From: Methanomassiliicoccaceae archaeon UBA72
Lineage (GTDB): Archaea > Thermoplasmatota > Thermoplasmata > Methanomassiliicoccales > Methanomethylophilaceae
DNA: 64,000 nucleotides
Assembly (NCBI GenBank): GCA_002509405.1
Contig: DAVO01000012.1
Span: 4,009 to 68,008, forward strand
Direction: 5' to 3'
This document shows positions 8,925 to 56,136 of this stretch, piece after piece (position 1 is the first letter of the stretch; every line of letters starts with the position of its first letter). The notes under the pieces were generated by a model that saw only the letters and a list, made by a program, of their open reading frames with translations, had not been told where the DNA came from and did no database searches. A program made the translations under genes and the position numbers.

Positions 8925-9007
8925 CGGCCATGAATTCTGATGCTTATATAAATCGTTGACCGCTCGGTCCTCACTTATAATTAATACCTCCGAGATAATC
9001 TGCATTC

Positions 9008-10276: not shown

Positions 10277-10338
10277 CGTAGGTCTTAAAATAAGCGGAAG
10301 CATACCGAAGAGCATATCCCAATGGGAAAGGTGAACAA

Positions 10339-10458
10339 ATGGCAGTAGAAGATATCGGGGAGAAGAACAGGAAGCGCAACAACAAGATCATAGGGACTGT
10401 GATGTTCCTTGCAGTACTGGCAGTTACGGTTTTCGCGTTCTTCTACTACCCTAACTGA
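10339..10458 (+). CDS. Possible 39-aa single-pass membrane micro-protein
   Basis: The sequence MAVEDIGEKNRKRNNKIIGTVMFLAVLAVTVFAFFYYPN is preceded by a Shine-Dalgarno-like AGGTGA about 5 nt upstream. It is shorter than the ORF-track cutoff. Confidence 0.4.
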   Translation: MAVEDIGEKNRKRNNKIIGTVMFLAVLAVTVFAFFYYPN

Positions 10459-10473
10459 GTAAATAGTTTAATT

Positions 10474-11778: not shown

Positions 11779-11819
11779 CCTCTCACCAAAGCATCAAGAA
11801 CGTTCCCCTATAAAATGTC

Positions 11820-28870: not shown

Positions 28871-30054
28871 TCCGAAGCCTCCGAGAAACGCTCCAGCAGT
28901 CTTACCTTCGCATCGCCGACGAGGTTCCTGAGCTCCTCGTCGCTCATGGATTCAAAATGCTTCTGCAGATACTTTTTCGAGGTCGCGGTGCTGCATATCG
29001 CTCCGATCAGACGGTCTCTTTCCATCATCATGACCGAATCTGCCACGGATGCGACCTTTGAAACAAGGTCCTTCCCCCCGGCAGAAGGCATGCTTTCCGG
29101 TTTCGAGAGGACCTCTATATCCGCAACCGTTCCAGCCGACCTTTCCTGTATCGCCTTCAAAATCTCGTCGGGTTCGGACCTGATCATTTTATCCAGCGCC
29201 CCGCGTCCTTTCACGGCGATTCTGACGACGGAGTTCTTTTCGATCATGGACGAAACGCTGTCGATGAAAGAGCGGAAGTCGCGTCCTGTTATATCGGCCT
29301 CTATCGTTTCCCAGATGATCTCCTGTGTCGGCACGAAACGAAGTTCCTTGACGGTGTCAGAGACCACCTTAACGACGTAAGCCCCTTTCTCTCCCGACTC
29401 CTTTATGCTCTTCCCTTGCGTGTTCCCGGGATACACCACATATGGCCTTTCGTGAAGCACTGCGCGTTTGTGTATGTGGCCCAGTGCCCAGTAGTCGATG
29501 TCCTTCTCTATCATATCGACGAGCCTGGCGGGGGCATATGCGGATGCATCGCTGGAATCCACGTCGCAATGGACGCATCCTACCGTGAAAACGTCCCTGC
29601 TTCCTTCGAGCTTTATCGCCAGGTCCTCGTTGGTGTTCCTGGAAGTGAAGCTGATGCCTGAAATCTCCACTCTGTCTCCGTTCTTCAGCTCCAGCATGAA
29701 CCGCTCGGGCTCGCCCCCGAACTCGTGGACGTTCGTAGGAAGGGGGATGTCATCCTCCCAGCTGGTGGTATGGTCGTGGTTCCCCCAAGCTATAAAGCAC
29801 GGAATGTCCAGCCCTCCAAGGATCTCGGCGAAGCGGAACCTGGTCCTCGGCGTGATGTTCTCCTTATCGAAGACGTCTCCGGATATGACCATGAAATCAG
29901 CATTTTCCGAACGGGCAAGGTCTGCTATTTTGGAGAAAGACGAGAATGTGGATTCTGCCATCCTCTTAGCAAGGTCCCTGTCCCTGGACCTGATTCCGGC
30001 GAACCTGCTGCCCAGATGCAGATCGGCGCAGTGTATGAATTTGAAGTCTGACAT
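28867..30054 (-). CDS. Mre11/SbcD/YhaO-like metallophosphoesterase nuclease
   Basis: HCADLHLG, GDVFD, WGNHDH and LGHIH are the calcineurin-like phosphoesterase motifs. I used the Met at 30054 (MSDFKFIH...). The stop overlaps the ATPase start by 4 nt. Confidence 0.8.
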   Translation of the reverse strand: MSDFKFIHCADLHLGSRFAGIRSRDRDLAKRMAESTFSSFSKIADLARSENADFMVISGDVFDKENITPRTRFRFAEILGGLDIPCFIAWGNHDHTTSWEDDIPLPTNVHEFGGEPERFMLELKNGDRVEISGISFTSRNTNEDLAIKLEGSRDVFTVGCVHCDVDSSDASAYAPARLVDMIEKDIDYWALGHIHKRAVLHERPYVVYPGNTQGKSIKESGEKGAYVVKVVSDTVKELRFVPTQEIIWETIEADITGRDFRSFIDSVSSMIEKNSVVRIAVKGRGALDKMIRSEPDEILKAIQERSAGTVADIEVLSKPESMPSAGGKDLVSKVASVADSVMMMERDRLIGAICSTATSKKYLQKHFESMSDEELRNLVGDAKVRLLERFSEASE

Positions 30055-30180
30055 GGCCGAGATAATGGCTAAGCGATTTAAGTATGGTGCCTCCGGTCCA
30101 CCGAATAGGCTGAAAGTGGACCGGCCGACCGTCCTTACCTCCAAATATTATATTGGTAATACCATCCAACCGGGAGAGCA

Positions 30181-36571: not shown

Positions 36572-39460
36572 TTATAAAATCATCTGTACAGCCGATTCAA
36601 TTTCTTCTCTGGGTATTGGTTCGAATTCAACCCTTTCGCCTATCGATACGAAGTCGATGACACACCTCGCCGGCCTCTTGTAGTAGCCCTCCGCCGCAAG
36701 TGCGTAGACGCTCAGCTGAAGCATGTATGCGTCCATGTTGTTTTTTGACACGTCGGTCTTGTAGTCATGCACCTCTATACGGTCCGGATAAAGTGCCAGA
36801 AGGTCTATGTAACCGCTGAGGGAAACGCCAAGTCCGTTAAGGGGCAGCATGCAATGGACCTCTGCCAGTACGAGGTCGGCGTCGGCGACGGATGCAAGGA
36901 CCTCTTTCACGGCGGGGGTCTCGGGATATTTCTCCCTAGGCTCGATGCCCTTGGCCAGTCCCTCCGCGGCCGCATGGATCTTCTTCCCGTACTCGATCCC
37001 CTTCCCCGAAACCTCGTCGGCGCCCTCCTCCGGCGGACCGCCTTCAAAGACCATTATGTCATGGACCCCTATGACCTTGCGACGGGATTCGTACGGCGCA
37101 GGAACAGGCATAAGGATGTTCCTGTCCTTCTCAGCAAATGCGGGCGCAGGCAGGTCCCCTATGGTTCCCAGGTATTTGTCCCCAGACAGCCCCGAGATGA
37201 ATTTGGAGGGCTCGTCCCCGCAGATCATAGTGACGTATTGCTTCGCCCTCGAGATGGCCACGAAAAGGGTGCGGCGCTCTTCGCTGTAGTCTCTGTCTGC
37301 GGCGGTCCTTACCAGTAATGTCTTCCAAGAGCATCCCTTTCTGACGAAACCTCCGTCGGAAACCAGCTCCGTGGTGCATCTCACGCCCTCTGTCTCGTTG
37401 AAATATATCTCGTAATTGTCCTGCGTATAGTTGGGTATTATACGGTTATCCAGCCTGGGTATGATCACTATCGGGTATTCCAGCCCCTTGGATTTATGCA
37501 TGGTCTGGATCAAAACGGCGTCGGAGTTCAGGTCCGCATCTATGCTGTATTTGTTTTTCTCGGCGATGTCGCTCTCGATCATCCTTATCATGTCCGATAT
37601 GGTGATCAGGGAGGAACGGTGGGCGGACGAAAGCGTGGTGATGATCGCCTGCGTGACGTCGTTGTTGAGTCCGTAGTATGAAAAAACAGACGATATCAGA
37701 TTGGTCGGCCTGCGTTTCTTCCTTTCCAGGTCATCCCTCAGTTCCGCGACCTCCTTGGGTACATCCGCGAAGTTCCCCCGGTCGCCGCGGACTATCTTTC
37801 TGACGTCCTCCAGGCCATACTCCATATCGGAAAGGATCCCCACCAGTCCCCAGGGGTCTGTCCTGTTGTTTATGAATTTCAGCCATGCGAGCAGCAGCTT
37901 TCCCTCTCTTGTGGACATTATCTCCACGTCCCCCTGCAGGAAAGCATCCACTCCTCTCGCCCTAGCCTCATCGTAAACGGCGCGGCACATGCTGCTGTTT
38001 CTGCAGATCACAGCGATGTCGCCGTACCTGGGCCTTCTGGCCTCTGTGCCCTCGTGCACAACGTAGTCGCCCGTCACATATTCTATGATCCTGGAGACCG
38101 TCTCCTTCGCCTCTTCGGAAGTCGGCACTTTGACATATCTCACGTGGGTGTCGGTCCCGATGGTGTCGTCGCCCGACGTCAGTTTAGTCACGGTTTCCGG
38201 GTCGAGGGAGACGGTCTCGTCATTGGTCCCCGGCAGACTCAGAACTGCGAACGAGGCGTCGATGATCTCCTGGGAGCTGCGATAGTTCCTGTCCAGCGAG
38301 AGCCTTGTGACCGCAGGTATCCTGAAAGGGATGCGCTCGGTGTCGTCGTTGAGATAAGCGTGCATGGCCACCGCCCGCCGCTCGAAATCGATTATGTTGT
38401 CGATCGATACGAACCTGAACCCGTATATTCCCTGTTTCCAGTCGCCCACCACGCAGAGGTTGGGCTCCTTGAGCAGCATCAGGGCGATCATCATCTGATT
38501 CTCGTTGGTGTCCTGGAATTCGTCTATCATCACGTACCTGCAGGACATTCTTTCCCTGACCCCGGCGCTGACATAGAGGATGATGAATGCGAACACGGAG
38601 TTCAGGCCGTAGGTCAGACGGTCGTCCGCGACCGAACGGCGTATGTATTCGTAGTATACGTCGTGAACGAACCTCAGGAGTTCGGACCTGTCGTCTTCGG
38701 CCGCGGATCTGATTATTTCCGGAGTCACATCTTCTTCCGTAGAAAACAGCGGCATTTCGGGAGAGAAAATCGTCCCTTCCTTGATTTTTTTGGAGACCGC
38801 GTTTATCAGCTTTTTCTTCTTCCTGGCATCGAAGTTCAGCCGCTCGACGGAAGAGGCGTCTCTGCCGATATCTCCCTCGAGGTCCTCCCCCTCTCTTCCT
38901 CCGAACCATCCCTTGCTCAGAGGCACTATGCCTTTGGCCATCAGTTTGTTGATCAAAGCATACATATGGGAAGGCAGAGTGCTGGAGATGACCGCTATAT
39001 CTCCGTATTCGCTTCCGTGTTCCGCGTTGAAACGGTCGAAGAAGTTGCTGAAATACTCTCTGTTAAGCGTTTCGTTCTCCACAAGCGACGCGCTTCGGGT
39101 GAGCCCCTCGCCGAAACCGAGGAAGTCGCTCACGGATTCAGGGGATTCCTTCACTATAGAGTAGCAGAACGAGTCGAATGTTCCGGCCTGGATGAGCCTC
39201 GTGTCCTTTCCCGTCTCCGTTTTCGCGAGCCCTTCCCTTATGCGCTCCTCCATCTCCGTGGCCGCGTTCTTGGTGAACGTGAGAAGGAGAATGTCCTTCG
39301 TCTGAATCTCAGGCTTTTTCAAAATGTTGATGTACCTGCTCACGACGGTGAAAGTTTTGCCCGTGCCGGGCCCGGCGTCGACCACGTAGAAGCCGTCCAG
39401 CCCTTCGGCGATGGCCTTCTGGGAATCGTTAGGTTCTTTAGCCATCGTATTCCCCCTCAT
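36572..39460 (-). CDS. AddA-like UvrD/PcrA-family helicase with a C-terminal PD-(D/E)XK nuclease domain
   Basis: The helicase motifs are DAGPGTGKT, MIDEFQDTN and TMHKSKGLEYPIV. The C-terminal nuclease motif is GYIDLLALYPDRIEVHDYKTD. An alternative Met start is at 39445. Confidence 0.8.
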   Translation of the reverse strand: MRGNTMAKEPNDSQKAIAEGLDGFYVVDAGPGTGKTFTVVSRYINILKKPEIQTKDILLLTFTKNAATEMEERIREGLAKTETGKDTRLIQAGTFDSFCYSIVKESPESVSDFLGFGEGLTRSASLVENETLNREYFSNFFDRFNAEHGSEYGDIAVISSTLPSHMYALINKLMAKGIVPLSKGWFGGREGEDLEGDIGRDASSVERLNFDARKKKKLINAVSKKIKEGTIFSPEMPLFSTEEDVTPEIIRSAAEDDRSELLRFVHDVYYEYIRRSVADDRLTYGLNSVFAFIILYVSAGVRERMSCRYVMIDEFQDTNENQMMIALMLLKEPNLCVVGDWKQGIYGFRFVSIDNIIDFERRAVAMHAYLNDDTERIPFRIPAVTRLSLDRNYRSSQEIIDASFAVLSLPGTNDETVSLDPETVTKLTSGDDTIGTDTHVRYVKVPTSEEAKETVSRIIEYVTGDYVVHEGTEARRPRYGDIAVICRNSSMCRAVYDEARARGVDAFLQGDVEIMSTREGKLLLAWLKFINNRTDPWGLVGILSDMEYGLEDVRKIVRGDRGNFADVPKEVAELRDDLERKKRRPTNLISSVFSYYGLNNDVTQAIITTLSSAHRSSLITISDMIRMIESDIAEKNKYSIDADLNSDAVLIQTMHKSKGLEYPIVIIPRLDNRIIPNYTQDNYEIYFNETEGVRCTTELVSDGGFVRKGCSWKTLLVRTAADRDYSEERRTLFVAISRAKQYVTMICGDEPSKFISGLSGDKYLGTIGDLPAPAFAEKDRNILMPVPAPYESRRKVIGVHDIMVFEGGPPEEGADEVSGKGIEYGKKIHAAAEGLAKGIEPREKYPETPAVKEVLASVADADLVLAEVHCMLPLNGLGVSLSGYIDLLALYPDRIEVHDYKTDVSKNNMDAYMLQLSVYALAAEGYYKRPARCVIDFVSIGERVEFEPIPREEIESAVQMIL

Positions 39461-42182
39461 CTGTTACGGCGGCAGGTTCCCGTGTGCAGACCGAAAAGAA
39501 ACAGCATTTCGTGCAGTCTTTACGGGGTTTAGGTTCGAAACCAGATCCCATCTTTTTCGATGCGGCCGCATGGTCATCGTTCAGTTTCTCAAGGAAAAGG
39601 CCCATGGAGTCCGAAGGGATGAACACTTCCTCTTTCACGATCCAGTAGTCCTCCTTCAGATGTTTGCAGAGTTTCCTCAATGCTTTGGTCACATAATCTG
39701 TTTTCACCTTCCCCGGCTTCATTCCGAGGGAAGACAACACGGACGCGACGAGTGCAGCGTCTCCCTCCCAGTCCTCGGGTCGGAGTCCGGAGGATAGCAA
39801 AGGCGACACGAAAGAATCCCATTTCTCATACATAGGCAACAGGGATTTCGTACCGTCAAAGAGCTTTCTCAACTGTGAATTCGGGTCGGCCATAGCCTCT
39901 CTTTTTGTTTCTTTCATCAGATGCACATTGACCGAATTGTAACAGACGGTCTCGGTGTCTTTCACGCGTCCGTCGGTCCCGAAAACGTAGAAAAGGCTGA
40001 AAACCGGAGTTCCGCCGCCCAAGGCCTCCCTGGCCAAAGCCAGGTAGATCAGGGGTTGCGTTTCGATGTATTCTGCTTTCTTCGGGTCGAGATTTTTGGC
40101 AACGTCGGTCGCTGCGTGGAAACCGCCGGTCTTGTAGTCGATCAGACAACTCCCTATCGCCAGGTCGAACTTGCCGTATATCGGATATTCGGAGGAGTCC
40201 ATATCTCTCTCCGCGTGGCTGCTGCACATGGCAAGGCCCTCTGATTTCATGAGTTCGTTGGGATATACGCGCGAGGCGTTTTCCACATCCAGGGGGACGG
40301 GCTCTTTCCTGACGCGGTCGATGAAGGTCATCAGGTTCCTCAGGGCCACGCGTATGCGGTCCATGTCCAGCTTCTCCATGAGCGGGCAGGAGAGCCCGGC
40401 GTACGTCTTGCCTATGAGCTCTGCGTAGTGCTCGATGCCGTTTTTAGCGACATGTTTGGGATAGCAGACGTACAACTCGGCGAAAGCATGGATAAGGTGT
40501 CCGAAAGCCGTGTTTTCGTTGTCGGGCGCGGTCACAAGATTTCCGTAGTAGAACGCACGGGGACAGTCGCAGTAATTGTTGTAAGTGGATTTCGTGAACT
40601 TCCATTCGCGCTCCGTGTCCTTTCCGATGATCTCGGTCCCCCTCTCGGGGAACACTTCGGGCGTTTCCTTGTACCAGGATCCTTTCCTTACGGGCGCGAC
40701 ATCTTTGAAGTATGTCACATGGCGTCCTTCCCCTTCAAGCCCGCAGATGCCCTCGAACAGGAAGGTCGGACGGGCCTCTTTTCCCTTCCTCGTTGCGTTT
40801 ATGGCGTAGATGCGGGACGTCCCCTGTTGCAGGAGGACCCTGAACTTCATCGCGTCCTTCTCGGCTTCCGCTTCTCTGTCGATATACTGCCTTCCCACGA
40901 TCCTGTTGCCCCATTCCTCGCCCATACCGATGAATATGACGAAAGGACGGTCGACGAATACTGACCTGTGGCAGTCTGCCAGGAGAACGCCTCTTTTTTC
41001 GCTGTCCGGTATCTGCTCGTTGTGGTGCAGGTCGGATACGTTGTTCACGGCATAATTCATCTCTCCAACCAGCTGAGAGGTCACCTTCCTTCCGGCGAAG
41101 TTCAGCTCGTCGAGCAGCAGGTGGACCTGTGGGACGCTCTTTTTGTTCACCACGAGGTCGCAGACCTCAAGAAAGGTCATTTCCTTCAGGTTTTTCATGC
41201 ATTCAGCCAGTTCCAGCGCTCTCCCTCCGATGTCGGGAAGTCTGGACAGGAGGACGTTGTCGTACCTAGCCCCAACCGTGCCGCCGTAAGCCGAGAATAT
41301 CTCCCTCACGTGCCTGACCCTGACGGTGTCGTAAGACATCCCCAGGGTCAGGAAGCTGAGATAATCTCTGACCTGGGAGAGGTCGCGTACGGTCATCGTG
41401 TTCTTGAACGGTATTCCGCGCCTGTAGAGGGCGGCGCGTACCGCGTCAGCTATCCCGCTCTCCGTATCCATGACAATCGCCACGTCCGTGGCGCGTTCCG
41501 CATCTATGAGTTCGACCACGTTCTCGGCGATCTGCCTGTCGTTGCCTATTTCGTATATCTCTCCGATTTCGTAATTTTCGTCTTCGGCGACAACCTCTAT
41601 CTCATCGTGCCTGATGGGAATGAAATGTTTGTCGAGGTCGTCGAATAGCTCGACGCCTATCACAGCGGTTCTTCTGCCGGCGAACATGTTGTCAGAAATA
41701 ACGTAACCGGACCCTCGGCCCTCGTGGTACGTCTCCGGGACGAAGTCTCCCATGGCCTTTTCCACCGTCGGGAGGGCTCTGTACGAATCGTATACCCTCC
41801 TGGACCTGCGGGAGTACAGGAACTTCTCGACTTCCGACGTATATCTCCTGATGTTCCTGATGTTCTCGACCTCGGCGTGCACGAATTTGAATCCGTATCC
41901 GGTCTCGTCGGAGACCGCGGCGACGACCTCCAGGTCGCTCATCAACGGCAGGCCCAGAATCTGGATCGAAAGGTCGACGGCCAACTGCCGCGGGGTGTAA
42001 GCGAAGCCCCCGATCATCGGCCGGTCTATCCGCCCGTTCAGGGCGGTGGCGAGGGGGGCGTCGTTTGTTATTACGATATCGAAGTCTCTCGCTTCTGCGT
42101 AAATCTCGTCGATGCTCTTGGTCCTGTACATCCGACGCTGAATCGTCCGGAGGATAGTAATCCTTTCTATCGAATCCAGCAA
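39438..42182 (-). CDS. AddB-like subunit: degenerate helicase-like N-region plus a PD-(D/E)XK nuclease with an Fe-S staple cysteine pattern
   Basis: GKFDLAIGSCLIDYKTGG is the nuclease core. A Cys in YNNYCDCP combined with C-terminal CTKCCFFSVC (C-x2-C-x5-C) matches the AddB/Cas4 iron-staple arrangement. No intact Walker A is seen. The gene overlaps the addA-like start. Confidence 0.65.
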   Translation of the reverse strand: MLDSIERITILRTIQRRMYRTKSIDEIYAEARDFDIVITNDAPLATALNGRIDRPMIGGFAYTPRQLAVDLSIQILGLPLMSDLEVVAAVSDETGYGFKFVHAEVENIRNIRRYTSEVEKFLYSRRSRRVYDSYRALPTVEKAMGDFVPETYHEGRGSGYVISDNMFAGRRTAVIGVELFDDLDKHFIPIRHDEIEVVAEDENYEIGEIYEIGNDRQIAENVVELIDAERATDVAIVMDTESGIADAVRAALYRRGIPFKNTMTVRDLSQVRDYLSFLTLGMSYDTVRVRHVREIFSAYGGTVGARYDNVLLSRLPDIGGRALELAECMKNLKEMTFLEVCDLVVNKKSVPQVHLLLDELNFAGRKVTSQLVGEMNYAVNNVSDLHHNEQIPDSEKRGVLLADCHRSVFVDRPFVIFIGMGEEWGNRIVGRQYIDREAEAEKDAMKFRVLLQQGTSRIYAINATRKGKEARPTFLFEGICGLEGEGRHVTYFKDVAPVRKGSWYKETPEVFPERGTEIIGKDTEREWKFTKSTYNNYCDCPRAFYYGNLVTAPDNENTAFGHLIHAFAELYVCYPKHVAKNGIEHYAELIGKTYAGLSCPLMEKLDMDRIRVALRNLMTFIDRVRKEPVPLDVENASRVYPNELMKSEGLAMCSSHAERDMDSSEYPIYGKFDLAIGSCLIDYKTGGFHAATDVAKNLDPKKAEYIETQPLIYLALAREALGGGTPVFSLFYVFGTDGRVKDTETVCYNSVNVHLMKETKREAMADPNSQLRKLFDGTKSLLPMYEKWDSFVSPLLSSGLRPEDWEGDAALVASVLSSLGMKPGKVKTDYVTKALRKLCKHLKEDYWIVKEEVFIPSDSMGLFLEKLNDDHAAASKKMGSGFEPKPRKDCTKCCFFSVCTREPAAVTDEGEYDG

Positions 42183-43760: not shown

Positions 43761-45104
43761 ATGGCGGAAAGACTGACGGTCACGCAGCTCAATACCAGAG
43801 TGCGCTCCATACTGTCGGAGTCCCATGCCGTCAATGACGTTTGGGTCATCGGCGAGATATCCAACCTCAAATTCTATCAAAGCGGACACTACTATTTCAC
43901 GCTGAAAGATGAAGGCAGTCAGATAAGCTCAGTGCTTTTCAAGGGTTCCAGGGGGAGAATCGATTTCGAGCCCGCAGACAATATGAAGGTCTCGGCTTTC
44001 GGACACGTCGACCTATACGTGGCCAACGGCAAATACCAGTTCATCGTCGAGACCATGACCCCCTCGGGGATAGGCGACCTGTTCCTGGAATATGAGAAGC
44101 TCAGGAAGAAACTCGAAGCCGAGGGATTGTTCGACTCCTCGAGGAAAAGAAAGCTTCCCGTTTATCCCAAGGTCATAGGCGTGGTCACGTCGGAGAGCGG
44201 GGCGGTGATCCACGATATCGTCACAACTTCAGGGAGGCTTTTCCCAGCAGACATCCTCCTCGCGCCCGCCCAGGTCCAGGGAGAAGGTGCCGCAGAATCC
44301 ATCATCAGAGGGATAGAGGTTCTCAACAGGGAAAAAGTAGACGTTATAATAGTTGGCAGGGGAGGAGGTTCCATAGAGGACCTTTGGGCTTTCAACGAGG
44401 AAAAGGTAGCAAGGGCGATCTCTTCCTCACAGGCACCGGTGATATCCGCGGTCGGGCACGAATCCGATTTCACTATAGCCGATTTCGTCGCCGACGTCAG
44501 GGCCCCCACACCCACCGGGGCCGCAGAGCTGGCCCTCCGTGACAAACGGGAAGTGATCAGACAAGTGGATGGTTTCGGAATACGGATGGGGAGGGCGCTC
44601 TACCATATATGTGAAGCGATGCGCTACCGTCTGGAACTGGCCGATTCCAAATTAGCGGTCGGCCGTCAGTACGAAAGACTCTCTATGCTGGAGATCCGAG
44701 TGGGGCAGCTTTCCGAGAAGGCCGATGCCGCGCTCAGATCCTCGGTGCTGGGCATGAGGTCCCGTTTCAATTCGGTCGATTCCAAGATATCTCCTGCTGC
44801 GGCGCAACGTACGGTAACGTCGCTGAAAGACCGTCTTTCCTTCCTGTCGGAAAGAATGAAGCTGGCCATATTGCGGCGCCTGAAGGATGCGGGGTCTAAG
44901 ATGGACGCAATAGACCAACGGTCCTCGGCACTCAACCCGCGCAGCGTGCTGGACAGGGGATACAGCTATGTGACCGACTCCGAAGGCCATGCCCTGACGT
45001 CGGCCAGGTCGCTATCCTCGGGGTCCATGGTGTCCATTTCGTTCCGCGACGGCGGTGCCGAAGCGGAGATAAAAAAGGTGAACTACGATGAACGAAGACA
45101 TTGA
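43761..45104 (+). CDS. xseA: Exodeoxyribonuclease VII large subunit
   Basis: The N-terminus is OB-fold (VWVIGEISNLKFYQSGHYYFTLKD), followed by the catalytic region VTSESGAVIHDI...RGGGSIEDLWAFN...VISAVGHESD. Confidence 0.88.
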   Translation: MAERLTVTQLNTRVRSILSESHAVNDVWVIGEISNLKFYQSGHYYFTLKDEGSQISSVLFKGSRGRIDFEPADNMKVSAFGHVDLYVANGKYQFIVETMTPSGIGDLFLEYEKLRKKLEAEGLFDSSRKRKLPVYPKVIGVVTSESGAVIHDIVTTSGRLFPADILLAPAQVQGEGAAESIIRGIEVLNREKVDVIIVGRGGGSIEDLWAFNEEKVARAISSSQAPVISAVGHESDFTIADFVADVRAPTPTGAAELALRDKREVIRQVDGFGIRMGRALYHICEAMRYRLELADSKLAVGRQYERLSMLEIRVGQLSEKADAALRSSVLGMRSRFNSVDSKISPAAAQRTVTSLKDRLSFLSERMKLAILRRLKDAGSKMDAIDQRSSALNPRSVLDRGYSYVTDSEGHALTSARSLSSGSMVSISFRDGGAEAEIKKVNYDERRH

Positions 45105-45321
45105 GGGTATGAGTTTCGAAGAATGCATCACGGCACTCGAAGCGCTGGTGAAAGAGCTTGAAAGCGGAACTCTCGACCTGGACAAGAGCCTCGAGATATA
45201 CGAGCGCGCCACCGTCATGAGGGACCGGTGCAAAAAGATACTTGAAGAGAGCGAGCGCCGGGTCCAGAAGATCACAGAGAGCTCGGAAGGTATCAAAAGG
45301 TCAGACCTTAAGATTGAGTGA
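45088..45321 (+). CDS. xseB: Exodeoxyribonuclease VII small subunit
   Basis: FEECITALEALVKELESGTLDLDKSLEIYERA is the XseB helical hairpin. The gene overlaps the end of xseA. Confidence 0.8.
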   Translation: MNEDIEGMSFEECITALEALVKELESGTLDLDKSLEIYERATVMRDRCKKILEESERRVQKITESSEGIKRSDLKIE

Positions 45322-46167
45322 CCAAAGTCTGAAGCACTGCTTCCTGGCCCATCCGTCCGTTTGGGAGTAGAGGTCCGTGCCGTGGAAGTACAGGTCGCTG
45401 AAGGCCAGTCTCAGGGAGCCGGAGAGCTCTCCCTCGCGCAGATTCTTGCTGTTGAAGGACCCGAATATGAACTTCAGTCCTATCAGGAGCACCTCCACCG
45501 CGTCGTGGCCCCTGGCGAAGTCGATGGGGTCGTATCCTTCAGACATCTCCTCGTTCAGGCGGCGCAGGAGTTCGTTCCTGCTTACGCCCACGTTCATCGA
45601 AGCGCTGATCACCTCGTTCACAAGCTGCTTTACGTCGGTCTGAAGAGTCTTGCGGTCGATGAACCTTTCAAAGTCCAGGTTTCTGAAGGAAAGGTTGATT
45701 TTCAGTTTTTCCGAGATGTACATCAGGAGGCCGACAGGATAACACGCAGACACTATGGCATCGAAAACGGGCCCATATTTTCTTTCGAATCCCTCAAGTT
45801 CGCCGGCATCGGCATATTCGCACAGAATGTCGTCCAGGGCCGGGCTTCCGATCATCATCATCTCCAGGTCCCTGCGGTCGGTCAGGAATAAGGGCGGGGC
45901 GCGTTTCTTTCCAGTTATCCTGTCAAGGTCGGAATCCACGATGCCGACGACGGACACGAGGCCTCGTCTGCTCCAGCACTCGTCCACGGATTTTCGGACG
46001 TTGTCTTTGGAATGGCCTATGACTATCTTCACATGCTCCTTGTCGCTGAACTTGCCGTAAAGCCTGCCGTCGGTGATCCCTTCGACCACGAGCACCGTGT
46101 CCTCGACCGAAGACATCAGCATCGTTATCTCATTCGCAATGTCTGCCGGCGTCAGTGTTTCCCGCAT
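45301..46167 (-). CDS. DUF4435/Toprim (OLD-like) nuclease domain protein, AriB-like
   Basis: TVLVVEGITDGRLYGKF contains the Toprim Glu and VGIVDSDLDRI contains DxD. The size (about 270 to 288 aa) and position directly downstream of, and overlapping, an ABC ATPase also fit. Alternative starts are at 46122 and 46116. Confidence 0.65.
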   Translation of the reverse strand: MRETLTPADIANEITMLMSSVEDTVLVVEGITDGRLYGKFSDKEHVKIVIGHSKDNVRKSVDECWSRRGLVSVVGIVDSDLDRITGKKRAPPLFLTDRRDLEMMMIGSPALDDILCEYADAGELEGFERKYGPVFDAIVSACYPVGLLMYISEKLKINLSFRNLDFERFIDRKTLQTDVKQLVNEVISASMNVGVSRNELLRRLNEEMSEGYDPIDFARGHDAVEVLLIGLKFIFGSFNSKNLREGELSGSLRLAFSDLYFHGTDLYSQTDGWARKQCFRLWSLNLKV

Positions 46168-47203
46168 TGTTAGCTTTCAGCTCCCTTGCCATATCCCATT
46201 TGTCATGGATTATCTGAGGCGAATGGGTCGCTATTATGAACTGAAGGTCCCTGAGCCTTGCCAGATCCACGAGTATCCCCCCGAGCTTCTGCTGCCACTC
46301 CACATGCAGGGAGTTCTCTGGCTCGTCCAGCACCACCAGCGAACCCTGTTCCGTCTGGAAAAGCAGACGGTACATGATGACCATGATCTGTTTCTCTCCC
46401 GAGGAAAGCGAGATGAGCGGAAGCTCCTTGCCGCTGTTGAGTCTGACCGTCAGGTTGTCTTTCTCGTTTATCTCTATATTCTTTTTGATCAGAAGTTCGT
46501 TGACGATGTCCTTGAAGACGACGATCGACTCTGCCAGCTGGTAGAACTTCCTGATATAGTCGTTCAGGCCGAAAGCCAGGTCCTGGTAGTCCTTCCTCTT
46601 CTTCGTGCTCAGGTCATGGCGCTCCGGCGGGAAGCGGAGACCGGAGGGCATCTCGGGCTCCAGCCCTGCTCCCTTCATGAAATCCAATTTGGCCTTGAGG
46701 TCCTTGAAAAGTAACACGAACTCCCCGTCGGAAAGGTCAGGGCGCCGGGAATCTTCGGGCTGCAACAGGGAGCCGTTGTCCTTTGCGTATCTGATGCGGT
46801 CTCTCATCTCGGCCGCGTAGACCGATATGGCCGGGACGTAATGGCCGTCCTTCTTCCTTACTATCTGCCTCTCCGGAGAGATATATGTCACCTGGAACAT
46901 CCTGCGGAGCTCCGACTCGTCGACCGGTTGCTCGAGCTCGTTCTTCTGCACCAGTACGTTCGTGCCGTTGTGGTTCTCGACGATGAGGGTCATATCGCTG
47001 GAGAAGTTGACGTCCATCCTCTCGAAAGGCATGGACGAGAGCACATCGAACTCCCCCTTCAGGAGGGCTACTACGGCCCGCATGATGATGGATTTGCCGA
47101 ATCCGTTGCTGGAATAGATGAAGGTTACAGGTCCCTGGTTCAGACTGACGCTGCTGTCGCATTCGTCGAAGAGCCCATAAATGGTAATCGTTCTGATCTT
47201 CAT
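46130..47203 (-). CDS. SMC/ABC-type ATPase (AAA_15/AAA_21-like), AriA-like
   Basis: Walker A is SSNGFGKS, the signature motif is LSSGEKQ, Walker B is LVVLDEPENSLH and the H-loop is ATHSPQ. A TATA-like CTTAAAATATGC lies about 25 nt upstream on the minus strand. Confidence 0.7.
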   Translation of the reverse strand: MKIRTITIYGLFDECDSSVSLNQGPVTFIYSSNGFGKSIIMRAVVALLKGEFDVLSSMPFERMDVNFSSDMTLIVENHNGTNVLVQKNELEQPVDESELRRMFQVTYISPERQIVRKKDGHYVPAISVYAAEMRDRIRYAKDNGSLLQPEDSRRPDLSDGEFVLLFKDLKAKLDFMKGAGLEPEMPSGLRFPPERHDLSTKKRKDYQDLAFGLNDYIRKFYQLAESIVVFKDIVNELLIKKNIEINEKDNLTVRLNSGKELPLISLSSGEKQIMVIMYRLLFQTEQGSLVVLDEPENSLHVEWQQKLGGILVDLARLRDLQFIIATHSPQIIHDKWDMARELKANNAGNTDAGRHCE

Positions 47204-47291
47204 CGTGTCCGTATGTCCTTAAGCATATTTTAAGTACCCGTTATCCTGGCCGAGGGCTATCTTTATTTCCGTTGAACAACTCTGCGCCACG

Positions 47292-48134
47292 ATGGAATCT
47301 GAAAAAACATTCTTCGAAGTAAAAAAACTCATCTCCTCCGGCAGTATCGATGCGGCGGAAGCGATCCTCTCCGACTTGGCATCATCTTCCGGCGACCCAT
47401 TCGTCCGCATCCAGTGCGCGTCGGTGATGATGATAGTCGGAAGGAACGTATCTTCCGAAAAGGTCCTAGAAGAACTGTACGAAAACCTTCCTGAAGATTC
47501 CGGGACGCTGTTCCAGATAGCAAGAGCCATGAGGGGCCTGGGGAGGGCAGATCTGGCCGCCGAGATCCTATCGGGCTTGGAGGGGGATGACGAGGTCTTG
47601 AGAGAGTACGCCCTTGCCCTTAACCTCCTGGGACGTTACGGAGATTCCGTTTCCGCCACGGCAAAAATATCTGCCCCTTCTCTCCGGGACAAGGTCCTGA
47701 CCGCAGACGGGCTGTCAGCTTCAGGACGTTCGCAGGAAGCCATTGGGCTGACAGGAGGTCTTTTGAAAGAATATCCAGAAGTCTACGATGTACAGCGCTC
47801 ACATTGCACCGCACTGATATCGGCGGGCATGGACAAGGAGGCCGTGAAGTATGCAAGGAGCCTTCTTAAGAAAGACAAGAATTCTCCCGACGCCAACGCG
47901 GTCGCCGCATACGTAATGCATGTCGAGGGAAAGAGCCAGTCCGCAGGAGCATTCGCATCTGCGGCATTACGTTCCGACCCGTCTCACCTAGGTGCCATGG
48001 AGGTTCTCGCGCTGAGCCTGATAGAAAAGGGGAAGTTCAGGGAGGCCAGCATCGTTGCCGGCGCCATGAACGAGAAGGAGCCGGGAAATCCGGCTGCGGT
48101 AAAAATACTCAAGGAATGCGGCGGAAAGAGCTGA
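47292..48134 (+). CDS. TPR-repeat protein
   Basis: The sequence shows repeated 34-aa helical-pair periodicity rich in A, L and G (LFQIARAMRGLGRADLAAEIL..., EYALALNLLGRYGDS...). It is divergent from the ATPase gene. Confidence 0.6.
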   Translation: MESEKTFFEVKKLISSGSIDAAEAILSDLASSSGDPFVRIQCASVMMIVGRNVSSEKVLEELYENLPEDSGTLFQIARAMRGLGRADLAAEILSGLEGDDEVLREYALALNLLGRYGDSVSATAKISAPSLRDKVLTADGLSASGRSQEAIGLTGGLLKEYPEVYDVQRSHCTALISAGMDKEAVKYARSLLKKDKNSPDANAVAAYVMHVEGKSQSAGAFASAALRSDPSHLGAMEVLALSLIEKGKFREASIVAGAMNEKEPGNPAAVKILKECGGKS

Positions 48135-51277: not shown

Positions 51278-52534
51278 ATGTGGAAGCAAGTAAGCGAGGA
51301 TTTCTGGAAGGAGAACCGCGCGTCCAAGGTCGGAGACGTCTCGGATGCCGTGAGCGGCATCATCGGCGAGGTGCGTGCCGGCGGTGACAAGGCGCTGTTC
51401 GAGCTTACCAAGAGATTCGACAGACAGGAACTCGGGCGTCTGGAGGTAACACGCGAAGAGATCGAAGACGCATACGATTCCGTAGACCAAGAGATAGTCG
51501 AAGAGCTGGAGAACGCGGCATACAACATCGAGCGCTTCCATGAGATGCAGGTCCCTCCAGATATGTGGCTCAGGGAGGTGGAGCCCGGCATTACGTTGGG
51601 TGTCAAGAGCACACCTCTTGAAAGGGTCGGATGCTATGTCCCGGGGGGGAGAGCGTCATATCCCAGCACAGCTCTGATGTGCATCATCCCGGCGAGGGTC
51701 GCGGGCGTAGGCGAGATTATCTGCTGTACTCCCGCCCCGGTGAACCCGGCGACGCTGGTAGCGATGGACATCGCGGGAGCGGACGAGATATTCAAGCTGG
51801 GCGGCGCGCAGGCCGTGGCGGCGATGGCGCTTGGTACCGGCAGCGTCCCAAAGGTCCAGAAGATAGTCGGCCCCGGAAACGTGTATGTCACGGCAGCAAA
51901 GATGATGCTCCGCAACGAGGTGGAGATAGACTTCCCGGCAGGACCCAGCGAGATAGGGGTGCTTGCCGATTCGGGCGCGGTATGTGAATATCTGGCTGCG
52001 GACCTCATAGCTCAGGCGGAGCACGACCCGTCATCGGCAAGCCTGCTGATAACGGACGACCCGGAGCTTCCCGGCCTCGTTTGGGAGGCTATGGAGCAAA
52101 TGATCGACGACCAGCCCAGGAAGAGCATCATACTGAAGGCCCTGGAGAACTCAGGTTACATCGTTGCAGAGGATATGGACGAGGCGGTCGAGATGATGAA
52201 CCGCATCGCCCCGGAGCACCTGTCCATACAGACCTCCGACCCGATGGCAACCCTTTCGAAGGTCAGGAACGCAGGTTCGATATTCGTAGGCCCCTATACC
52301 CCGGTTGCCGCAGGCGACTATGCGTCGGGGACCAACCACGTGCTTCCCACGGCCGGGAATTCATCAACGGCTTCCGGCCTGAACGTGGCACACTTCCGTA
52401 AGACGTCCACCGTGCAGTTGCTCACCTGCGAGGGCCTGGAGGCCCTTGCGCCGACCATAGAGACTTTGTCCACATCGGAAGGCCTTCACGCCCACTGCGA
52501 TTCGGTGAGGGTCCGCTTCGACGATGCGGAGTGA
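51278..52534 (+). CDS. hisD: Histidinol dehydrogenase
   Basis: VGCYVPGGRASYPSTALM...GPGNVYVTAAK...AQAEHD...AGDYASGTNHVLPT shows the HisD motifs. Confidence 0.92.
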   Translation: MWKQVSEDFWKENRASKVGDVSDAVSGIIGEVRAGGDKALFELTKRFDRQELGRLEVTREEIEDAYDSVDQEIVEELENAAYNIERFHEMQVPPDMWLREVEPGITLGVKSTPLERVGCYVPGGRASYPSTALMCIIPARVAGVGEIICCTPAPVNPATLVAMDIAGADEIFKLGGAQAVAAMALGTGSVPKVQKIVGPGNVYVTAAKMMLRNEVEIDFPAGPSEIGVLADSGAVCEYLAADLIAQAEHDPSSASLLITDDPELPGLVWEAMEQMIDDQPRKSIILKALENSGYIVAEDMDEAVEMMNRIAPEHLSIQTSDPMATLSKVRNAGSIFVGPYTPVAAGDYASGTNHVLPTAGNSSTASGLNVAHFRKTSTVQLLTCEGLEALAPTIETLSTSEGLHAHCDSVRVRFDDAE

Positions 52535-54608
52535 GATGATGGACCACTTAGACCTCTACGACCCCAACCTCTACATCAACAGGGAGCTCTCATGGCTCGA
52601 GTTCAACAGGAGATGCCTCGACGAGGCCAACGACAAGGGGGCCCCCCTGCTCGAACGCCTGAAGTTCCTTGCCATATGCTACGGGAACCTCGACGAGTTC
52701 TTCATGATCCGCGTCCCCGGCATAGTCAACGGGATAGTGGCAGGTGCACCGATACTTGATGCCCCGGACATAGAGCATGACACAAACCGTCTGCTTTCCA
52801 AGATCAATTCCAAGGTGGAGGGCCTGCTAGAGGGGTACAACGCATGCTGGTTGGAGCTCAGGTCGGTCCTTTCGGAGAACGGGATAAGGATTCTGTCCAT
52901 AGACGACCTCTCCGACGAGCAGATGGAGGCGGTGGATTCCTTCTACAACGACCGCATCCATCCTCTCCTGACGCCTCTCGCGCTGGACGTATCGCATCCG
53001 TTCCCTTTCATCTCGAGCAACACCCTCAGCCTTGCGGTGAAGATGGAGGGGCCCAGGGGCCAGGTAATGTATGCCAGGATCAAGATGCCCCTCGGACCCT
53101 TCAACCGCTTCGTGCGGATACCATCCGAATCCTCCGGCTTCGACTATGTCCTCCTGGAGGATATGGTGCGCCACAACGTGCAGAAGCTTTTCCCCGGTTT
53201 CAAGATCAACGGGGTATACGCCTTCAGGGTCACCAGGAATGCTGATACCAAGGTGACGATCGACGAGGCCTGCGACCTCATGTCTGCCGTCGAGGAGTCC
53301 ATCGAAGGCAGGGGCACCGGTTTCCCGGTCAGGATGGTCACAGAGTCTGCCATGCCCCAGGACATGGTGGAGCTTTTCGGCAAGAATCTGGACCTCGGGA
53401 CGGAGCAGATACACAGGTCGGATTCGCCGTTGATGCTCAACAGCCTCTGGGAGCTCTACGACCTCAACCTGCCCCGTCTCAAGGAGAAGGAATTCAGGCC
53501 CTACTGCCCGCAGGAGCTGGCAGAGGGGTCGTCGATCTTCGAGGCCGTAGCAAAGAGGGACTGGGTGCTCTACCACCCGTACGAATCCTTCGGGATAATA
53601 GTGAGGTTCCTGCAGGAAGCGGCCCACGACCCTGCGGTCCAGAGCATCAAGATATGTCTTTACAGGATAGGCAAGGACCCCTCCATAATCCAGGCGCTTA
53701 GGGATGCCAGGGAGAAAGGTAAGACGGTATCGGTCCTGATGGAGATAAGGGCGAAATTCGACGAGACCAACAATATACAGCTCGCGAAAAGCATGGAACA
53801 GCTCGGCATACATGTGGTCTTCGGGCCCCTGGAGCTAAAGGTCCATTCCAAGCTCCTGCAGGTGGTGCGCCTCGAGGGAGGCCATCTTGTCAGGTACACC
53901 CATATGAGCTCCGGCAACTACAACGTAAGCACCGCCAAGCAGTATGCCGACATCTCGTTCCTGACGGTGAACGAGGAGATAGGAGAGGACGTGGGCGAAC
54001 TTTTCAACTCCCTCACCGGCTACTTCGGACCCAGGGAATACAAGCAGCTGCTGGTGTCGCCTCTGAACCTGAAGGACTCGCTCATCGAAAAGATAAGACG
54101 CGAGATCGAACGCAAGGAGGAGACCGGCAGCGGATACATCGCGCTCAAGGCCAACGGCCTCATAGACGCGGACATCATTGCAAGCCTGTACAGCGCGTCC
54201 ATCGCGGGCGTGAAGATAGAATTGAACATCAGGGGGCTGTGCTGCCTCCGTCCCGGGATACCAGGAGTATCCGACAACATACGCGTGATAAGGGTGGTGG
54301 ACAGGTTCCTGGAGCATGCGCGCATCTACTACTTCGAGAACGGGGGCGACCCGGAGATGTACATGGGTTCTTCGGACATAATGCCGAGAAACCTCCTCGC
54401 AAGGGTCGAGACGCTGTTCCCGATACTCGACAAGGAGATGCTGGTCTCCATCAGGGACAACATCCTTCGCGTGCACCTTGCCGACAACGTGAAGGCCAGC
54501 GAGCTGACCTCCGACGGGACGTATGTCCCGGTGGCAAGGAAGAAGAAGGAGCCGGCAGTCAGGTCGCAGAAATGGTTCATTGACCACAGAGGGTGCTGGC
54601 ATGGCTGA
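52524..54608 (+). CDS. ppk: Polyphosphate kinase 1
   Basis: YINRELSWLEFNRRCLDEA...LERLKFLAICYGNLDEFFMIRV and the HSK motifs (KVHSKLL) match PPK1. The gene overlaps the end of hisD. An alternative ATG is at 52536. Confidence 0.92.
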   Translation: MRSEMMDHLDLYDPNLYINRELSWLEFNRRCLDEANDKGAPLLERLKFLAICYGNLDEFFMIRVPGIVNGIVAGAPILDAPDIEHDTNRLLSKINSKVEGLLEGYNACWLELRSVLSENGIRILSIDDLSDEQMEAVDSFYNDRIHPLLTPLALDVSHPFPFISSNTLSLAVKMEGPRGQVMYARIKMPLGPFNRFVRIPSESSGFDYVLLEDMVRHNVQKLFPGFKINGVYAFRVTRNADTKVTIDEACDLMSAVEESIEGRGTGFPVRMVTESAMPQDMVELFGKNLDLGTEQIHRSDSPLMLNSLWELYDLNLPRLKEKEFRPYCPQELAEGSSIFEAVAKRDWVLYHPYESFGIIVRFLQEAAHDPAVQSIKICLYRIGKDPSIIQALRDAREKGKTVSVLMEIRAKFDETNNIQLAKSMEQLGIHVVFGPLELKVHSKLLQVVRLEGGHLVRYTHMSSGNYNVSTAKQYADISFLTVNEEIGEDVGELFNSLTGYFGPREYKQLLVSPLNLKDSLIEKIRREIERKEETGSGYIALKANGLIDADIIASLYSASIAGVKIELNIRGLCCLRPGIPGVSDNIRVIRVVDRFLEHARIYYFENGGDPEMYMGSSDIMPRNLLARVETLFPILDKEMLVSIRDNILRVHLADNVKASELTSDGTYVPVARKKKEPAVRSQKWFIDHRGCWHG

Positions 54609-56136
54609 AAGCAGGACCGTCGCCTTCATAGACGTGGGTACCAACTCGATCCATGTGCTGGTGACCCAGTTCTTCCCGGACTCGGTGGGCACTCCGATAT
54701 TCGACGACAAGGAGTCCGTGAGGCTTGGCCAGAACCTCTTCGCCGAGGGATACATCGACCAAGAGACCATCCAGAGGACGAAACTTGTCATAGGGCGTTT
54801 CGTCAGGATAGCCAAGGACATGGGCGCGGACGAGATATTCGCCTTCGCCACATGCGCCGCACGCGAGGCCTACAACAGGAACGAGCTGCTGGACGCGGCT
54901 TCTGAAGCGGGAATAGATCTGAGGATAATATCCGGCACCGAGGAGGCCAGGCTGGCGGGGCTCGGCGTGTTCGGGCCTTACGGGCCCCCGGACAGGTGCG
55001 TCGACATCGATCTCGGAGGGGGAAGCACCGAGATAAATCTCTGCAAAGGCAGCGAGACCATATTCTTGGACAGCCTCATGGCCGGTTCGGTGCGTTTCTC
55101 CTACGGGCTGGGCATAGACCAGCGCGGGACGGTGTCCCGTGCCGACTACGAAAAGATGCTCCGTGCGGTGGACAAGGTGGCAGATAATGCGGCCAACAGG
55201 CTCAGGGAGATCGGATTCGACAGGGCGATGGGGTCATCGGGCACCATGATAAATCTGGCCGAGATGTGCGCCGCCCGCAGGGACGGCGACGCTTCGTATA
55301 TGACGAAAAAAGAGCTTTCGGAGCTGATGAGGGACCTTTGCGCCATGGACGAAGTCCAGCGCCGCAGCGTGCCCAGGATGAACCCCGGAAGGTCGGACAT
55401 AATCATCGGAGGAGGGGCCGTAGCAGAGGAGCTGATGCACCTTTTCGAGATAGACAAGATATTCATCAGCGAACGCGGGCTGAGAGAAGGGATGCAGTTC
55501 GACTATCTCCTGGGAAAAGGCAGGAAGGAGTTCAATCTCAGGCGATCCTCTGTGATGACACTCGCCAGACGCTGCGGTTTCAACGAGAAGCACGCATCGC
55601 AGGTCAACATGCTCACGATGCGTATGTTCGACAGCATGAAGGACCTCGGCCTGCACGCGATGAACGGCGACGTCAGGGAACTGCTGGGATATGCGGCGAC
55701 GCTCCATGATATAGGGGAGTTCATCAGCTACAACAAGCACAATGTCCACTCCTACACGATAATATTGAATTCGAACATGCCCGGTTTCACCCCGACGGAA
55801 CTGGAGGACATGGCGCTGATCGCAAAGTTCCACCACAAACGGTTCCCCGGGTCGAACCACAAGCTCCTCAAGACGTTTACCAGACAACGGGCCAAGACCG
55901 TCCGCTACTGCGCCATGATGCTCCGCATGGCCGACGTTCTGGACAGGCACAGGTCCTCGCCGGTGGACAGCATGCGCGTCCTCGCGGTCGGAGGCAGCGT
56001 GCTCATAGATCTGAAGTCCAAGGAGGACCTGAGCATGGAGGTCTGGAAGCTGGAAGAGCTATCCGAACCGTTCAGAGAAGTATTCGGGTCAGAGCTTAGG
56101 ATATGCGCATCCGGGTGGGGCGAAGCGAAGATATAG
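54601..56136 (+). CDS. ppx: Exopolyphosphatase (Ppx/GppA) with a C-terminal HD domain; the only gene here ending in TAG
   Basis: VAFIDVGTNSIHVLV...IDLGGGSTEI is the ASKHA fold and LHDIGEFISYNKH is the HD region. I used the ATG at 54601, which overlaps the ppk stop. Confidence 0.85.
   Translation: MAESRTVAFIDVGTNSIHVLVTQFFPDSVGTPIFDDKESVRLGQNLFAEGYIDQETIQRTKLVIGRFVRIAKDMGADEIFAFATCAAREAYNRNELLDAASEAGIDLRIISGTEEARLAGLGVFGPYGPPDRCVDIDLGGGSTEINLCKGSETIFLDSLMAGSVRFSYGLGIDQRGTVSRADYEKMLRAVDKVADNAANRLREIGFDRAMGSSGTMINLAEMCAARRDGDASYMTKKELSELMRDLCAMDEVQRRSVPRMNPGRSDIIIGGGAVAEELMHLFEIDKIFISERGLREGMQFDYLLGKGRKEFNLRRSSVMTLARRCGFNEKHASQVNMLTMRMFDSMKDLGLHAMNGDVRELLGYAATLHDIGEFISYNKHNVHSYTIILNSNMPGFTPTELEDMALIAKFHHKRFPGSNHKLLKTFTRQRAKTVRYCAMMLRMADVLDRHRSSPVDSMRVLAVGGSVLIDLKSKEDLSMEVWKLEELSEPFREVFGSELRICASGWGEAKI

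Follow-up and report, generated by a model that had tools for sequence, protein, structure and literature searches.

A PARIS-derived ATPase/Toprim gene pair held as a core, syntenic locus in the archaeal family Methanomethylophilaceae

Between xseB and a gene for a tetratricopeptide repeat (TPR) protein, the 64,000-nucleotide stretch of Methanomassiliicoccaceae archaeon UBA72 analysed here (GCA_002509405.1, contig DAVO01000012.1, positions 4,009 to 68,008; in the following, the window, to which coordinates refer unless a locus is named) carries two overlapping minus-strand genes, which encode an ABC-type ATPase and, downstream of it, a DUF4435/Toprim protein. An initial annotation, made from the sequence alone, had likened the two to PARIS (AriA/AriB) and to split OLD systems, and had proposed that they form an immune module. 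The pair is found to descend from the PARIS (class 4 OLD) lineage, and it is a core gene pair, fixed, syntenic and under purifying selection across an archaeal family. The features of the locus are as follows (nt, nucleotides; aa, amino acids).

46130-47203, minus strand: AriA-like ABC ATPase gene, 357 aa (open reading frame, Pfam, PADLOC, PDB, AF2/Foldseek, hhalign)
45301-46167, minus strand: AriB-like DUF4435/Toprim gene, 288 aa (open reading frame, Pfam, PADLOC, AF2/Foldseek)
46130-46167, minus strand: overlap of 38 nt, the end of the ATPase gene over the start of the DUF4435 gene
45301-45321: convergent 3'-end overlap of the DUF4435 gene and xseB, 21 nt
45088-45321, plus strand: xseB (open reading frame)
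43761-45321, plus strand: xseA and xseB, large and small subunits of exonuclease VII, downstream neighbours outside the module (Exonuc_VII_L 1e-95, Exonuc_VII_S 6e-14)
47204-47291: divergent intergenic region between the ATPase and TPR genes, 88 nt
47233-47226, minus strand: TATA-like TTAAAATA, 22 nt upstream of the ATPase ATG, as read from the sequence
47292-48134, plus strand: TPR protein gene, 280 aa (Pfam TPR_19, TPR_14 and others), divergent from the ATPase gene, 88 nt upstream

Both the two overlapping frames and the 21-nt overlap with xseB, as initially annotated, are borne out by the open reading frame coordinates. The 38-nt overlap within the pair indicates translational coupling, and TTAAAATA would be a candidate promoter of a leaderless or short-leader ATPase transcript. 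The host is an archaeon and, as had been remarked, the local composition does not look foreign: the guanine plus cytosine (GC) content of the pair (0.54-0.55) is equal to that of the flanks, and its closest homologues are annotated as Methanomethylophilaceae or Methanomassiliicoccales. ARAGORN finds no tRNA gene in the 64-kb window, and no integrase or defence gene lies near the pair in it, the neighbours being ordinary housekeeping genes.

The ATPase matches the Pfam families AAA_21 (1.1e-18) and AAA_15 (1.1e-16). Among 5,027 PADLOC models its best match is AriA (7e-30), which is also the best model for 27 of 27 diverse family members, and AriA (464 aa; 8ux9, 8v45-8v49) is its closest solved relative by PDB sequence search (9e-14). 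The AF2 model (pLDDT 89.7) consists of a Rad50-type head with a three-helix insert; the top 15 Foldseek matches of this model are all AriA (E ~1e-18, TM 0.53-0.61), the next group, from ~1e-13, comprising retron-associated ATPases (PtuA), Rad50 and SMC heads, and hhalign aligns the archaeal ATPase family with AriA at 99.7% and E 3.5e-26. All the motifs initially quoted for this protein (GFGKS, LSSGEKQ, LVVLDEPENSLH and ATHSP) are found in its translation, with core residues invariant family-wide, namely N33-G34-x-G36-K37 of the Walker A motif, L266, S267, G269 and E270 of LSSGE, DEPE 293-296 and T326, S328 and P329 of THSP; S268 of LSSGE and H327 of THSP are nearly so.

For the downstream protein, the match to the Pfam DUF4435 model is a narrow pass (3.6e-6, 27.3 bits for a cut-off of 27) and no NCBIfam model matches it. 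AriB was not found in PDB sequence searches with the protein alone, with the profile of the archaeal clade or with that of the outgroup described below, so that within the PDB the two are linked by fold comparison only. The borderline score, and with it the initial DUF4435 assignment, is resolved because AriB is the protein's sole match among the PADLOC models (1.4e-12), and likewise the sole match in 25 of 25 diverse family members, and because its AF2 model (pLDDT 93.4, pTM 0.89) has significant Foldseek matches in the PDB to AriB chains only (8ux9_A, 8v46_D), over the full length, with E 5e-6, probability 1.00 and TM 0.52-0.54.

The VVEGITD and VDSDLD motifs named in the initial annotation are both present in the translation and their core residues are invariant in the family, the full set of invariant positions being E29, D33, D78, D80, D82, D97, D100, E102 and RGHD 219-222. 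The metal-binding residues of AriB are E26, D30, D88, E90 and E122 (PMC11464382), of which the acidic residues of the archaeal protein are, by spacing and without superposition, the probable equivalents. Judged from the two sequences, the pair keeps everything needed for ATP hydrolysis and for metal-dependent nuclease activity. The RGHD motif (~45502-45513) lies in the C-terminal helical domain, outside the Toprim core; it is invariant in the archaeal clade, and in alignment A4 of the mobile outgroup the consensus is CGHD, with the G invariant and the H and D nearly so. In DUF4435 nucleases this GHD motif may serve catalysis or substrate binding; no discussion of it was found in the literature consulted.

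The matches made by PADLOC, PDB, Foldseek and hhalign support AriA/AriB specifically, as had been proposed, over other systems that combine an ABC ATPase with a nuclease. PARIS, the class 4 OLD system solved from the P4 satellite of E. coli B185 (8ux9, 8v45-8v49), has the same arrangement of adjacent, co-oriented and overlapping genes, an AAA_15/AAA_21 ATPase followed by DUF4435; no other profiles match the archaeal pair as well as AriA and AriB, and no other solved structures are closer to it; the pair keeps the ATPase motifs and the Toprim acidic residues. Sequence identity is low, at 15-18%, and AriB is beyond the reach of sequence comparison with either DUF4435 profile. Septu and retron PtuA, AbiL (AbiLi/AbiLii), MADS3-4 and Gabija GajA have the AAA_15/AAA_21 core in common with the archaeal ATPase, the C-terminal half of which matches their PADLOC models, but the partner is an HNH protein (PtuB) in Septu and retrons or RloB (AbiLii) in AbiL, and a fused TOPRIM_OLD domain in Gabija, whereas in the archaeal pair it is DUF4435. 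Membership of Septu, retron, AbiL or Gabija systems is rejected on the scores (PtuA 1e-20 or worse and AbiLi 1e-12, as against 7e-30 for AriA) and on the wrong partner; neither a reverse transcriptase nor a methylase was found near the pair. The classical OLD enzymes of classes 1 and 2 (P2 Old, GajA) fuse ATPase and TOPRIM_OLD, while the archaeal proteins are encoded by two genes with a DUF4435 nuclease, and the OLD protein of Thermus scotoductus (6p74) is a weak match to them. A Rad50/Mre11 identity is also rejected, since AriA is by far the better match and the window has a Rad50-like gene of its own at 26.5 kb, as is a RecF/RecR-like analogy, the support for which is the general pairing of ABC ATPase and Toprim only.

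Such likeness is what a genuine PARIS immune system fixed in the lineage would display. In that case the remodelled helical domain would still sense a viral protein, perhaps one conserved in viruses of Methanomassiliicoccales, whereupon the Toprim nuclease would be released, tRNA cleaved and the infection aborted. For this explanation speak the first rank of AriA and AriB at the profile, sequence and fold levels, the invariance of the catalytic residues of both ATPase and Toprim, the retention of the coupled two-gene layout and, as described further on, the resemblance of the closest relatives outside the clade to mobile PARIS. The distribution of the pair and the structure of its ATPase tell against it, and it is in our view an unlikely, though serious, alternative.

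As to the distribution, 112 genomes proved to carry relatives in a scan with one genome per species, and 80 loci were retained for analysis; the positions of the neighbours were obtained by tblastn of the window's neighbouring genes against these loci. It had initially been stated that a syntenic position in all relatives, with housekeeping co-expression, would speak against an immune module. The first of these two signs is present: the ATPase gene lies immediately upstream of the DUF4435 gene in 80 of 80 loci and xseB immediately downstream, in convergent orientation, in 79, while xseA is syntenic in 76, the TPR gene in 69, and TrkH and TrkA occupy the same positions in 59 and 55 loci, respectively, the neighbour genes missing from loci being mostly accounted for by contig ends. 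The collinear core block, of ~16 kb, reads PPK-HisD-TrkA-TrkH-TPR-ATPase-DUF4435-xseB-xseA-thioesterase-zinc ribbon-hypothetical-AddB-AddA. Within it the DUF4435 gene is intact in all 80 loci (283-293 aa), 63 of 76 loci have the ATPase gene running 4-38 nt into the start of the DUF4435 gene, and the DUF4435 gene and xseB overlap by 4-29 nt in most of the 79 loci with an adjacent xseB.

A few of these loci deserve separate mention. In L034, L037, L051, L062, L066 and L072 (6 of 76) the ATPase frame is without its usual stop and runs 164-563 nt into the DUF4435 gene, in a different frame, giving Arg/Gly-rich tails; these overruns may be real extensions, lost stop codons or assembly frameshifts. 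The contigs of L022, L023, L034, L036, L051, L062 and L066 belong to bins with bacterial labels (Lachnospiraceae, Bacteroidaceae, Prevotella hominis, Firmicutes CAG:194, Dialister hominis and Bacteroides ovatus), with the gene order of Methanomethylophilaceae where they are long enough, and in full in L023, L036, L051, L062 and L066. Almost certainly, these are archaeal contigs that were placed in the wrong bin or wrongly labelled in public assemblies. Finally, L078 carries, at ~7560-12190, a lineage-specific insertion of 4.6 kb between the DUF4435 gene and xseB, encoding a 542-aa AAA-ATPase_like/PDDEXK_9 protein and several small open reading frames; it is the sole large disruption of this junction among the 80 loci.

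The pair also evolves as its neighbours do. The p-distance, averaged over all pairs of loci, amounts to 0.488 in DUF4435 and 0.487 in the ATPase, compared with 0.445 for xseA, 0.505 for TrkA, 0.576 for TrkH and 0.60 for the TPR protein. Congruence of the trees was judged by correlation of distances and by monophyly in neighbour joining: the Spearman coefficients between pair and neighbours (0.37-0.75) cover much the same range as those among the neighbours themselves (0.43-0.71), and the syntenic set forms a single clade in the neighbour-joining tree. When compared with three close relatives, the ratio of non-synonymous to synonymous substitution rates (dN/dS) is 0.07-0.17 for DUF4435 and 0.08-0.10 for the ATPase, and 0.07-0.10, 0.10 and 0.06-0.09 for xseA, the TPR protein and TrkH, respectively. 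No relative was found in a scan of the 2.9 million viral contigs of IMG/VR, and no known defence gene in the few lineage-specific insertions beside the pair. A recent horizontally acquired island is rejected on the normal GC content and the strict synteny, and the initial impression of an old resident is supported; a defence hotspot was likewise rejected, insertions beside the pair being rare and without known defence genes.

These rates bear on a further possibility, namely that a selfish, toxin-antitoxin-like cassette, with AriB as toxin and AriA as antitoxin, is retained by addiction without benefit to the host. AriA is indeed termed an antitoxin by the depositors of the PDB entries, and AriB is toxic once freed from AriA (PMC11464382). 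Yet addiction leaves unexplained the more than 100 species in which both genes are intact, with a dN/dS of ~0.1 on both, as well as the single fixed location and the absence of extra copies on mobile elements, and a joint deletion of both genes would escape it, so that this explanation deserves hardly any credence.

The relatives outside the archaeal clade were sought by exhaustive HMMER search with the DUF4435 profile over representatives of clusters at 50% identity, which returned 3,824 representatives at E<=1e-3 and 1,084 at E<=1e-30, the few of the archaeal clade included. About 11 representatives of this clade score 337-428 bits and are followed by a large plateau of full-length relatives at ~200-290 bits, of which the following were inspected with their partner genes.

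P0388/P0248: 291 bits, partner ATPase of 374 aa, syntenic (TrkH-TPR-ATPase-DUF4435-xseA)
P0249: 288 bits, partner ATPase of 440 aa, unrelated context
P0251: 270 bits, partner ATPase of 463 aa, unrelated context
P0252: 266 bits, partner ATPase of 440 aa, unrelated context
P0387: 202 bits, partner ATPase of 457 aa, adjoining a phage integrase, an ISL3 transposase and a type I-C CRISPR-Cas locus

P0249, 40% identical to the DUF4435 protein of the window, is the nearest non-syntenic relative, and locus L082 (GCA_030604065.1) is the nearest relative with a long ATPase. The non-syntenic relatives belong to an outgroup (for example L081, L082, L084, L085 and L086-L165) of the same DUF4435 subfamily, at 35-40% identity to the archaeal proteins, for which 80 loci were collected from metagenomes with the narrower alignment A5. 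Over 283 columns the DUF4435 profile of the archaeal clade aligns collinearly with that of the outgroup (hhalign 100%, E 2.4e-89), both with VEGxxDxR, GIVDxDxD, TDxxDxE and GHD, and the gene order and the stop/start overlap (in the outgroup typically a 4-nt ATGA) are the same. The outgroup ATPases are longer (median 444 aa, mostly 413-493 aa, in the 80 metagenome loci), possess an IS1-like segment, and are 25-29% identical to the ATPase of the window. That the ATPase is much more diverged from its long relatives than the nuclease suggests a remodelling of the sensor subunit when the archaeal clade arose.

Unlike the archaeal pair, the outgroup loci are without common neighbours. When locus pairs of matched divergence were compared (DUF4435 35-60% identical), the upstream neighbour was common to 81% of archaeal-clade pairs and to 0 of 375 outgroup pairs, and the downstream neighbour to 94% and to 0 of 829, respectively. 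The neighbours in the outgroup are heterogeneous, 137 proteins matching 164 Pfam families with no family in more than 6 proteins. The nearest relatives outside the archaeal clade thus behave like ordinary mobile PARIS with long ATPases. In L082, a second SMC_N/AAA_15-type ATPase (478 aa) and a 388-aa protein are encoded at 8854-11515 on the minus strand of the locus, convergent to the PARIS-like pair, and in L085 an 831-aa AAA_23 ATPase lies just downstream; these genes may belong to additional ATPase-based systems that cluster with the mobile form.

As had been suspected from the outset, the archaeal ATPase is shorter than AriA, by 107 residues (357 as against 464), and archaeal-clade ATPases measure 342-374 aa. 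In AriA, two insertions have been described: IS1 (residues 122-180), made of three helices and predicted to recognize the trigger, with the pore loops 113-124 and 161-174, implicated in Ocr sensing, in or beside it, and IS2 (residues 242-289), which permits hexamer assembly, as a trimer of dimers (AriA6:AriB3) (PMC11464382). AriA residues 6-440 were rebuilt from an alignment, and both published pore-loop sequences were reproduced exactly. By hhalign, ~70 AriA residues within 82-200, among them most of IS1, have no counterpart in the archaeal ATPase, which is short for this reason, and a further ~21 residues are absent at AriA 309-329, in the last coiled-coil helix, following IS2. The same gap in the IS1 region appears when the archaeal ATPase is aligned directly with the long ATPases of the outgroup, which keep the segment. 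The IS2-equivalent region is of similar length, in a low-confidence stretch of the hhalign alignment; the sum of IS1 (59 aa) and IS2 (48 aa), which gives the 107-aa difference, is therefore probably a coincidence.

What remains of the presumed sensing region has changed in character. The basic, disordered central-pore loop of AriA, ESERHLRERDVK, aligns in hhalign to a conserved archaeal motif, QKNELExP, and the equivalent of this loop is acidic, with a mean net charge of -3 across the archaeal clade. The helical apex (residues 159-199) bears the clade-specific, near-invariant KDLKAKLDF..AG.EP..P...RFPP, and its conservation (0.59) equals that of the catalytic C-lobe (0.59), whereas in the outgroup ATPases the helical region scores 0.39-0.41 and the C-lobe 0.70.

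Taken as a whole, the immune module initially proposed is only partly supported: it stands as far as the homology to PARIS is concerned, but with the ATPase in place in 80 loci, xseB in 79 and the block collinear from PPK to AddA, a mobile immune module is not supported. In particular, a PARIS system serving defence in this lineage is difficult to reconcile with strict family-wide synteny and uniform intactness, with housekeeping-like rates and dN/dS, with the lack of any association with mobile elements or defence islands and of any find on IMG/VR viral contigs, and with the absence of the greater part of the insertion predicted to recognize the trigger. Conservation of the putative sensing surface is, moreover, unusually high, while PARIS sensors are reported to be poorly conserved there (PMC11464382). 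PARIS is carried by satellites, prophages or defence islands, whereas the pair is chromosomally fixed, syntenic and vertically inherited, and its host is an archaeon.

The neighbours themselves invite a more specific proposal, narrower than the reading favoured below, in which the pair would be a DNA-repair accessory to exonuclease VII and to the AddAB-like helicase-nuclease, an ATP-driven, Rad50-like clamp and a Toprim nickase acting on DNA ends or protein-DNA adducts. The convergent, abutting xseB in 79 of the 80 species and the presence of AddB and AddA in the same collinear block are in line with it, the neighbouring repair genes being identified by Pfam. An ATPase without most of IS1 resembles Rad50-type heads, whose helical domains bind DNA (PMC11464382), and OLD enzymes, as well as Cran1, an OLD protein of Sulfolobales, are DNA nickases (PMC12796447). 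Against this, the convergent orientation rules out co-transcription with xseBA, the block also contains the unrelated TrkAH, HisD, PPK and thioesterase genes, so that linkage may be plain synteny, exonuclease VII is not among the common neighbours of the outgroup loci, and the sole characterised AriB cleaves tRNA, not DNA. This role for the pair is therefore improbable.

Other genes of the window may be recorded here. The AddA/AddB-like pair, of bacterial type although in an archaeon, occupies 36572-42182 on the minus strand, ~3 kb from xseAB, and is syntenic family-wide; it consists of a 962-aa UvrD-helicase/PD-(D/E)XK protein and a 914-aa PD-(D/E)XK protein. AddAB, exonuclease VII and the PARIS-like pair may be an old block of bacterial origin. 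A 778-aa Rad50-like protein with a weak AAA_23 match is encoded within 26534-30144 on the minus strand, preceded by a 425-aa open reading frame, possibly Mre11, and with this gene, AddAB and exonuclease VII the region is strongly DNA-repair in content. The genes for PPK1 (694 aa) and a Ppx/GppA phosphatase (537 aa) are adjacent at 52524-56136 on the plus strand, PPK lying within the conserved block.

The reading that we favour, with slightly better than even confidence, is that of a domesticated or repurposed PARIS-derived module that senses a conserved, probably cellular, cue. A PARIS module would have been captured once by the ancestor of the Methanomethylophilaceae and inserted between the TPR gene and xseB; it would then have shed most of IS1 and would since have passed vertically from ancestor to descendant, a core gene pair subject to purifying selection. 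By homology to AriA/AriB, the ATPase would form a head-to-tail, ATP-binding dimer, on which the Toprim nuclease would be docked and restrained near the nucleotide sites; ligand binding would bring about an ATP-dependent conformational change by which the nuclease is licensed, and the latter would cut nucleic acid by means of two metal ions. The target might be tRNA, by analogy with AriB, or DNA, which would be nicked, by analogy with OLD and Cran1. The input would be received through the helical apex, rather than from a fast-evolving phage anti-restriction protein through basic pore loops, and a conserved cue read by a conserved apex makes a domesticated housekeeping or stress nuclease likelier than a mobile abortive-infection system. 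A cellular nucleic-acid role of the pair appears likely; that role outside defence, like the assembly of the complex, its activation and its substrate, is inferred.

Several points weigh against domestication and must be set beside those in its favour. The presence of the pair was sampled via the pair itself, so that genomes of the family that lack it fall outside the sample, and the general conservation of gene order in small genomes could inflate the apparent meaning of synteny. All the residues required for PARIS toxicity and the coupled two-gene layout are kept, as expected of a working abortive-infection module, and a fixed defence system is conceivable. Furthermore, even for E. coli AriA the functions assigned to IS1 and to the pore loops come from prediction and, in part, from tests (PMC11464382), and pore residues vary among PARIS clades (PMC11464382), so that the short ATPase could simply sense something else.

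A precedent for the domestication of such an enzyme is provided by Cran1 (clade U11), which is vertically inherited, lineage-wide, essential, linked to the cell cycle, in step with which it is expressed, and not defensive; its atypical conservation is what led to the discovery of its essential cell-cycle role (PMC12796447). The evolutionary signature of the archaeal pair is the same, both being OLD-family ATPase/Toprim systems with lineage-wide, vertical inheritance and no sign of horizontal transfer within the lineage, but Cran1 is one fused polypeptide of another OLD clade, whereas the pair is split in the class 4 manner and belongs to the PARIS lineage. No paper among those searched links PARIS or DUF4435 to Methanomassiliicoccales. 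It may be proposed tentatively, at somewhat less than even odds, that the pair represents a second independent archaeal domestication of an OLD-family defence enzyme, and the first with the split PARIS (class 4) architecture, in which a mobile abortive-infection module lost its sensor of viral triggers and became, in an entire family of host-associated methanogens, a core, possibly essential, ATP-controlled nuclease in DNA repair or chromosome maintenance, or in tRNA or RNA turnover.

Class 4 OLD systems have been reported as restricted to bacteria (PMC12796447); the pair places a class 4 OLD derivative in archaea. As the PADLOC models of AriA and AriB match every family member tested, PADLOC/DefenseFinder-type tools likely call PARIS in these genomes, and such calls would count a core gene pair as defence and inflate censuses of archaeal defence. 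The loss of most of IS1 coincides with the switch from a mobile to a fixed state, and thus offers a natural test of the sensing and signalling parts of AriA. If domestication is true, the pair would join Cran1 as a second example of archaeal cell biology making use of an OLD-type immune enzyme, and a tractable one for how abortive-infection toxins are tamed. The Methanomethylophilaceae are methanogens of the human gut and rumen, in which a conserved, lineage-specific nuclease complex would be of some applied interest.

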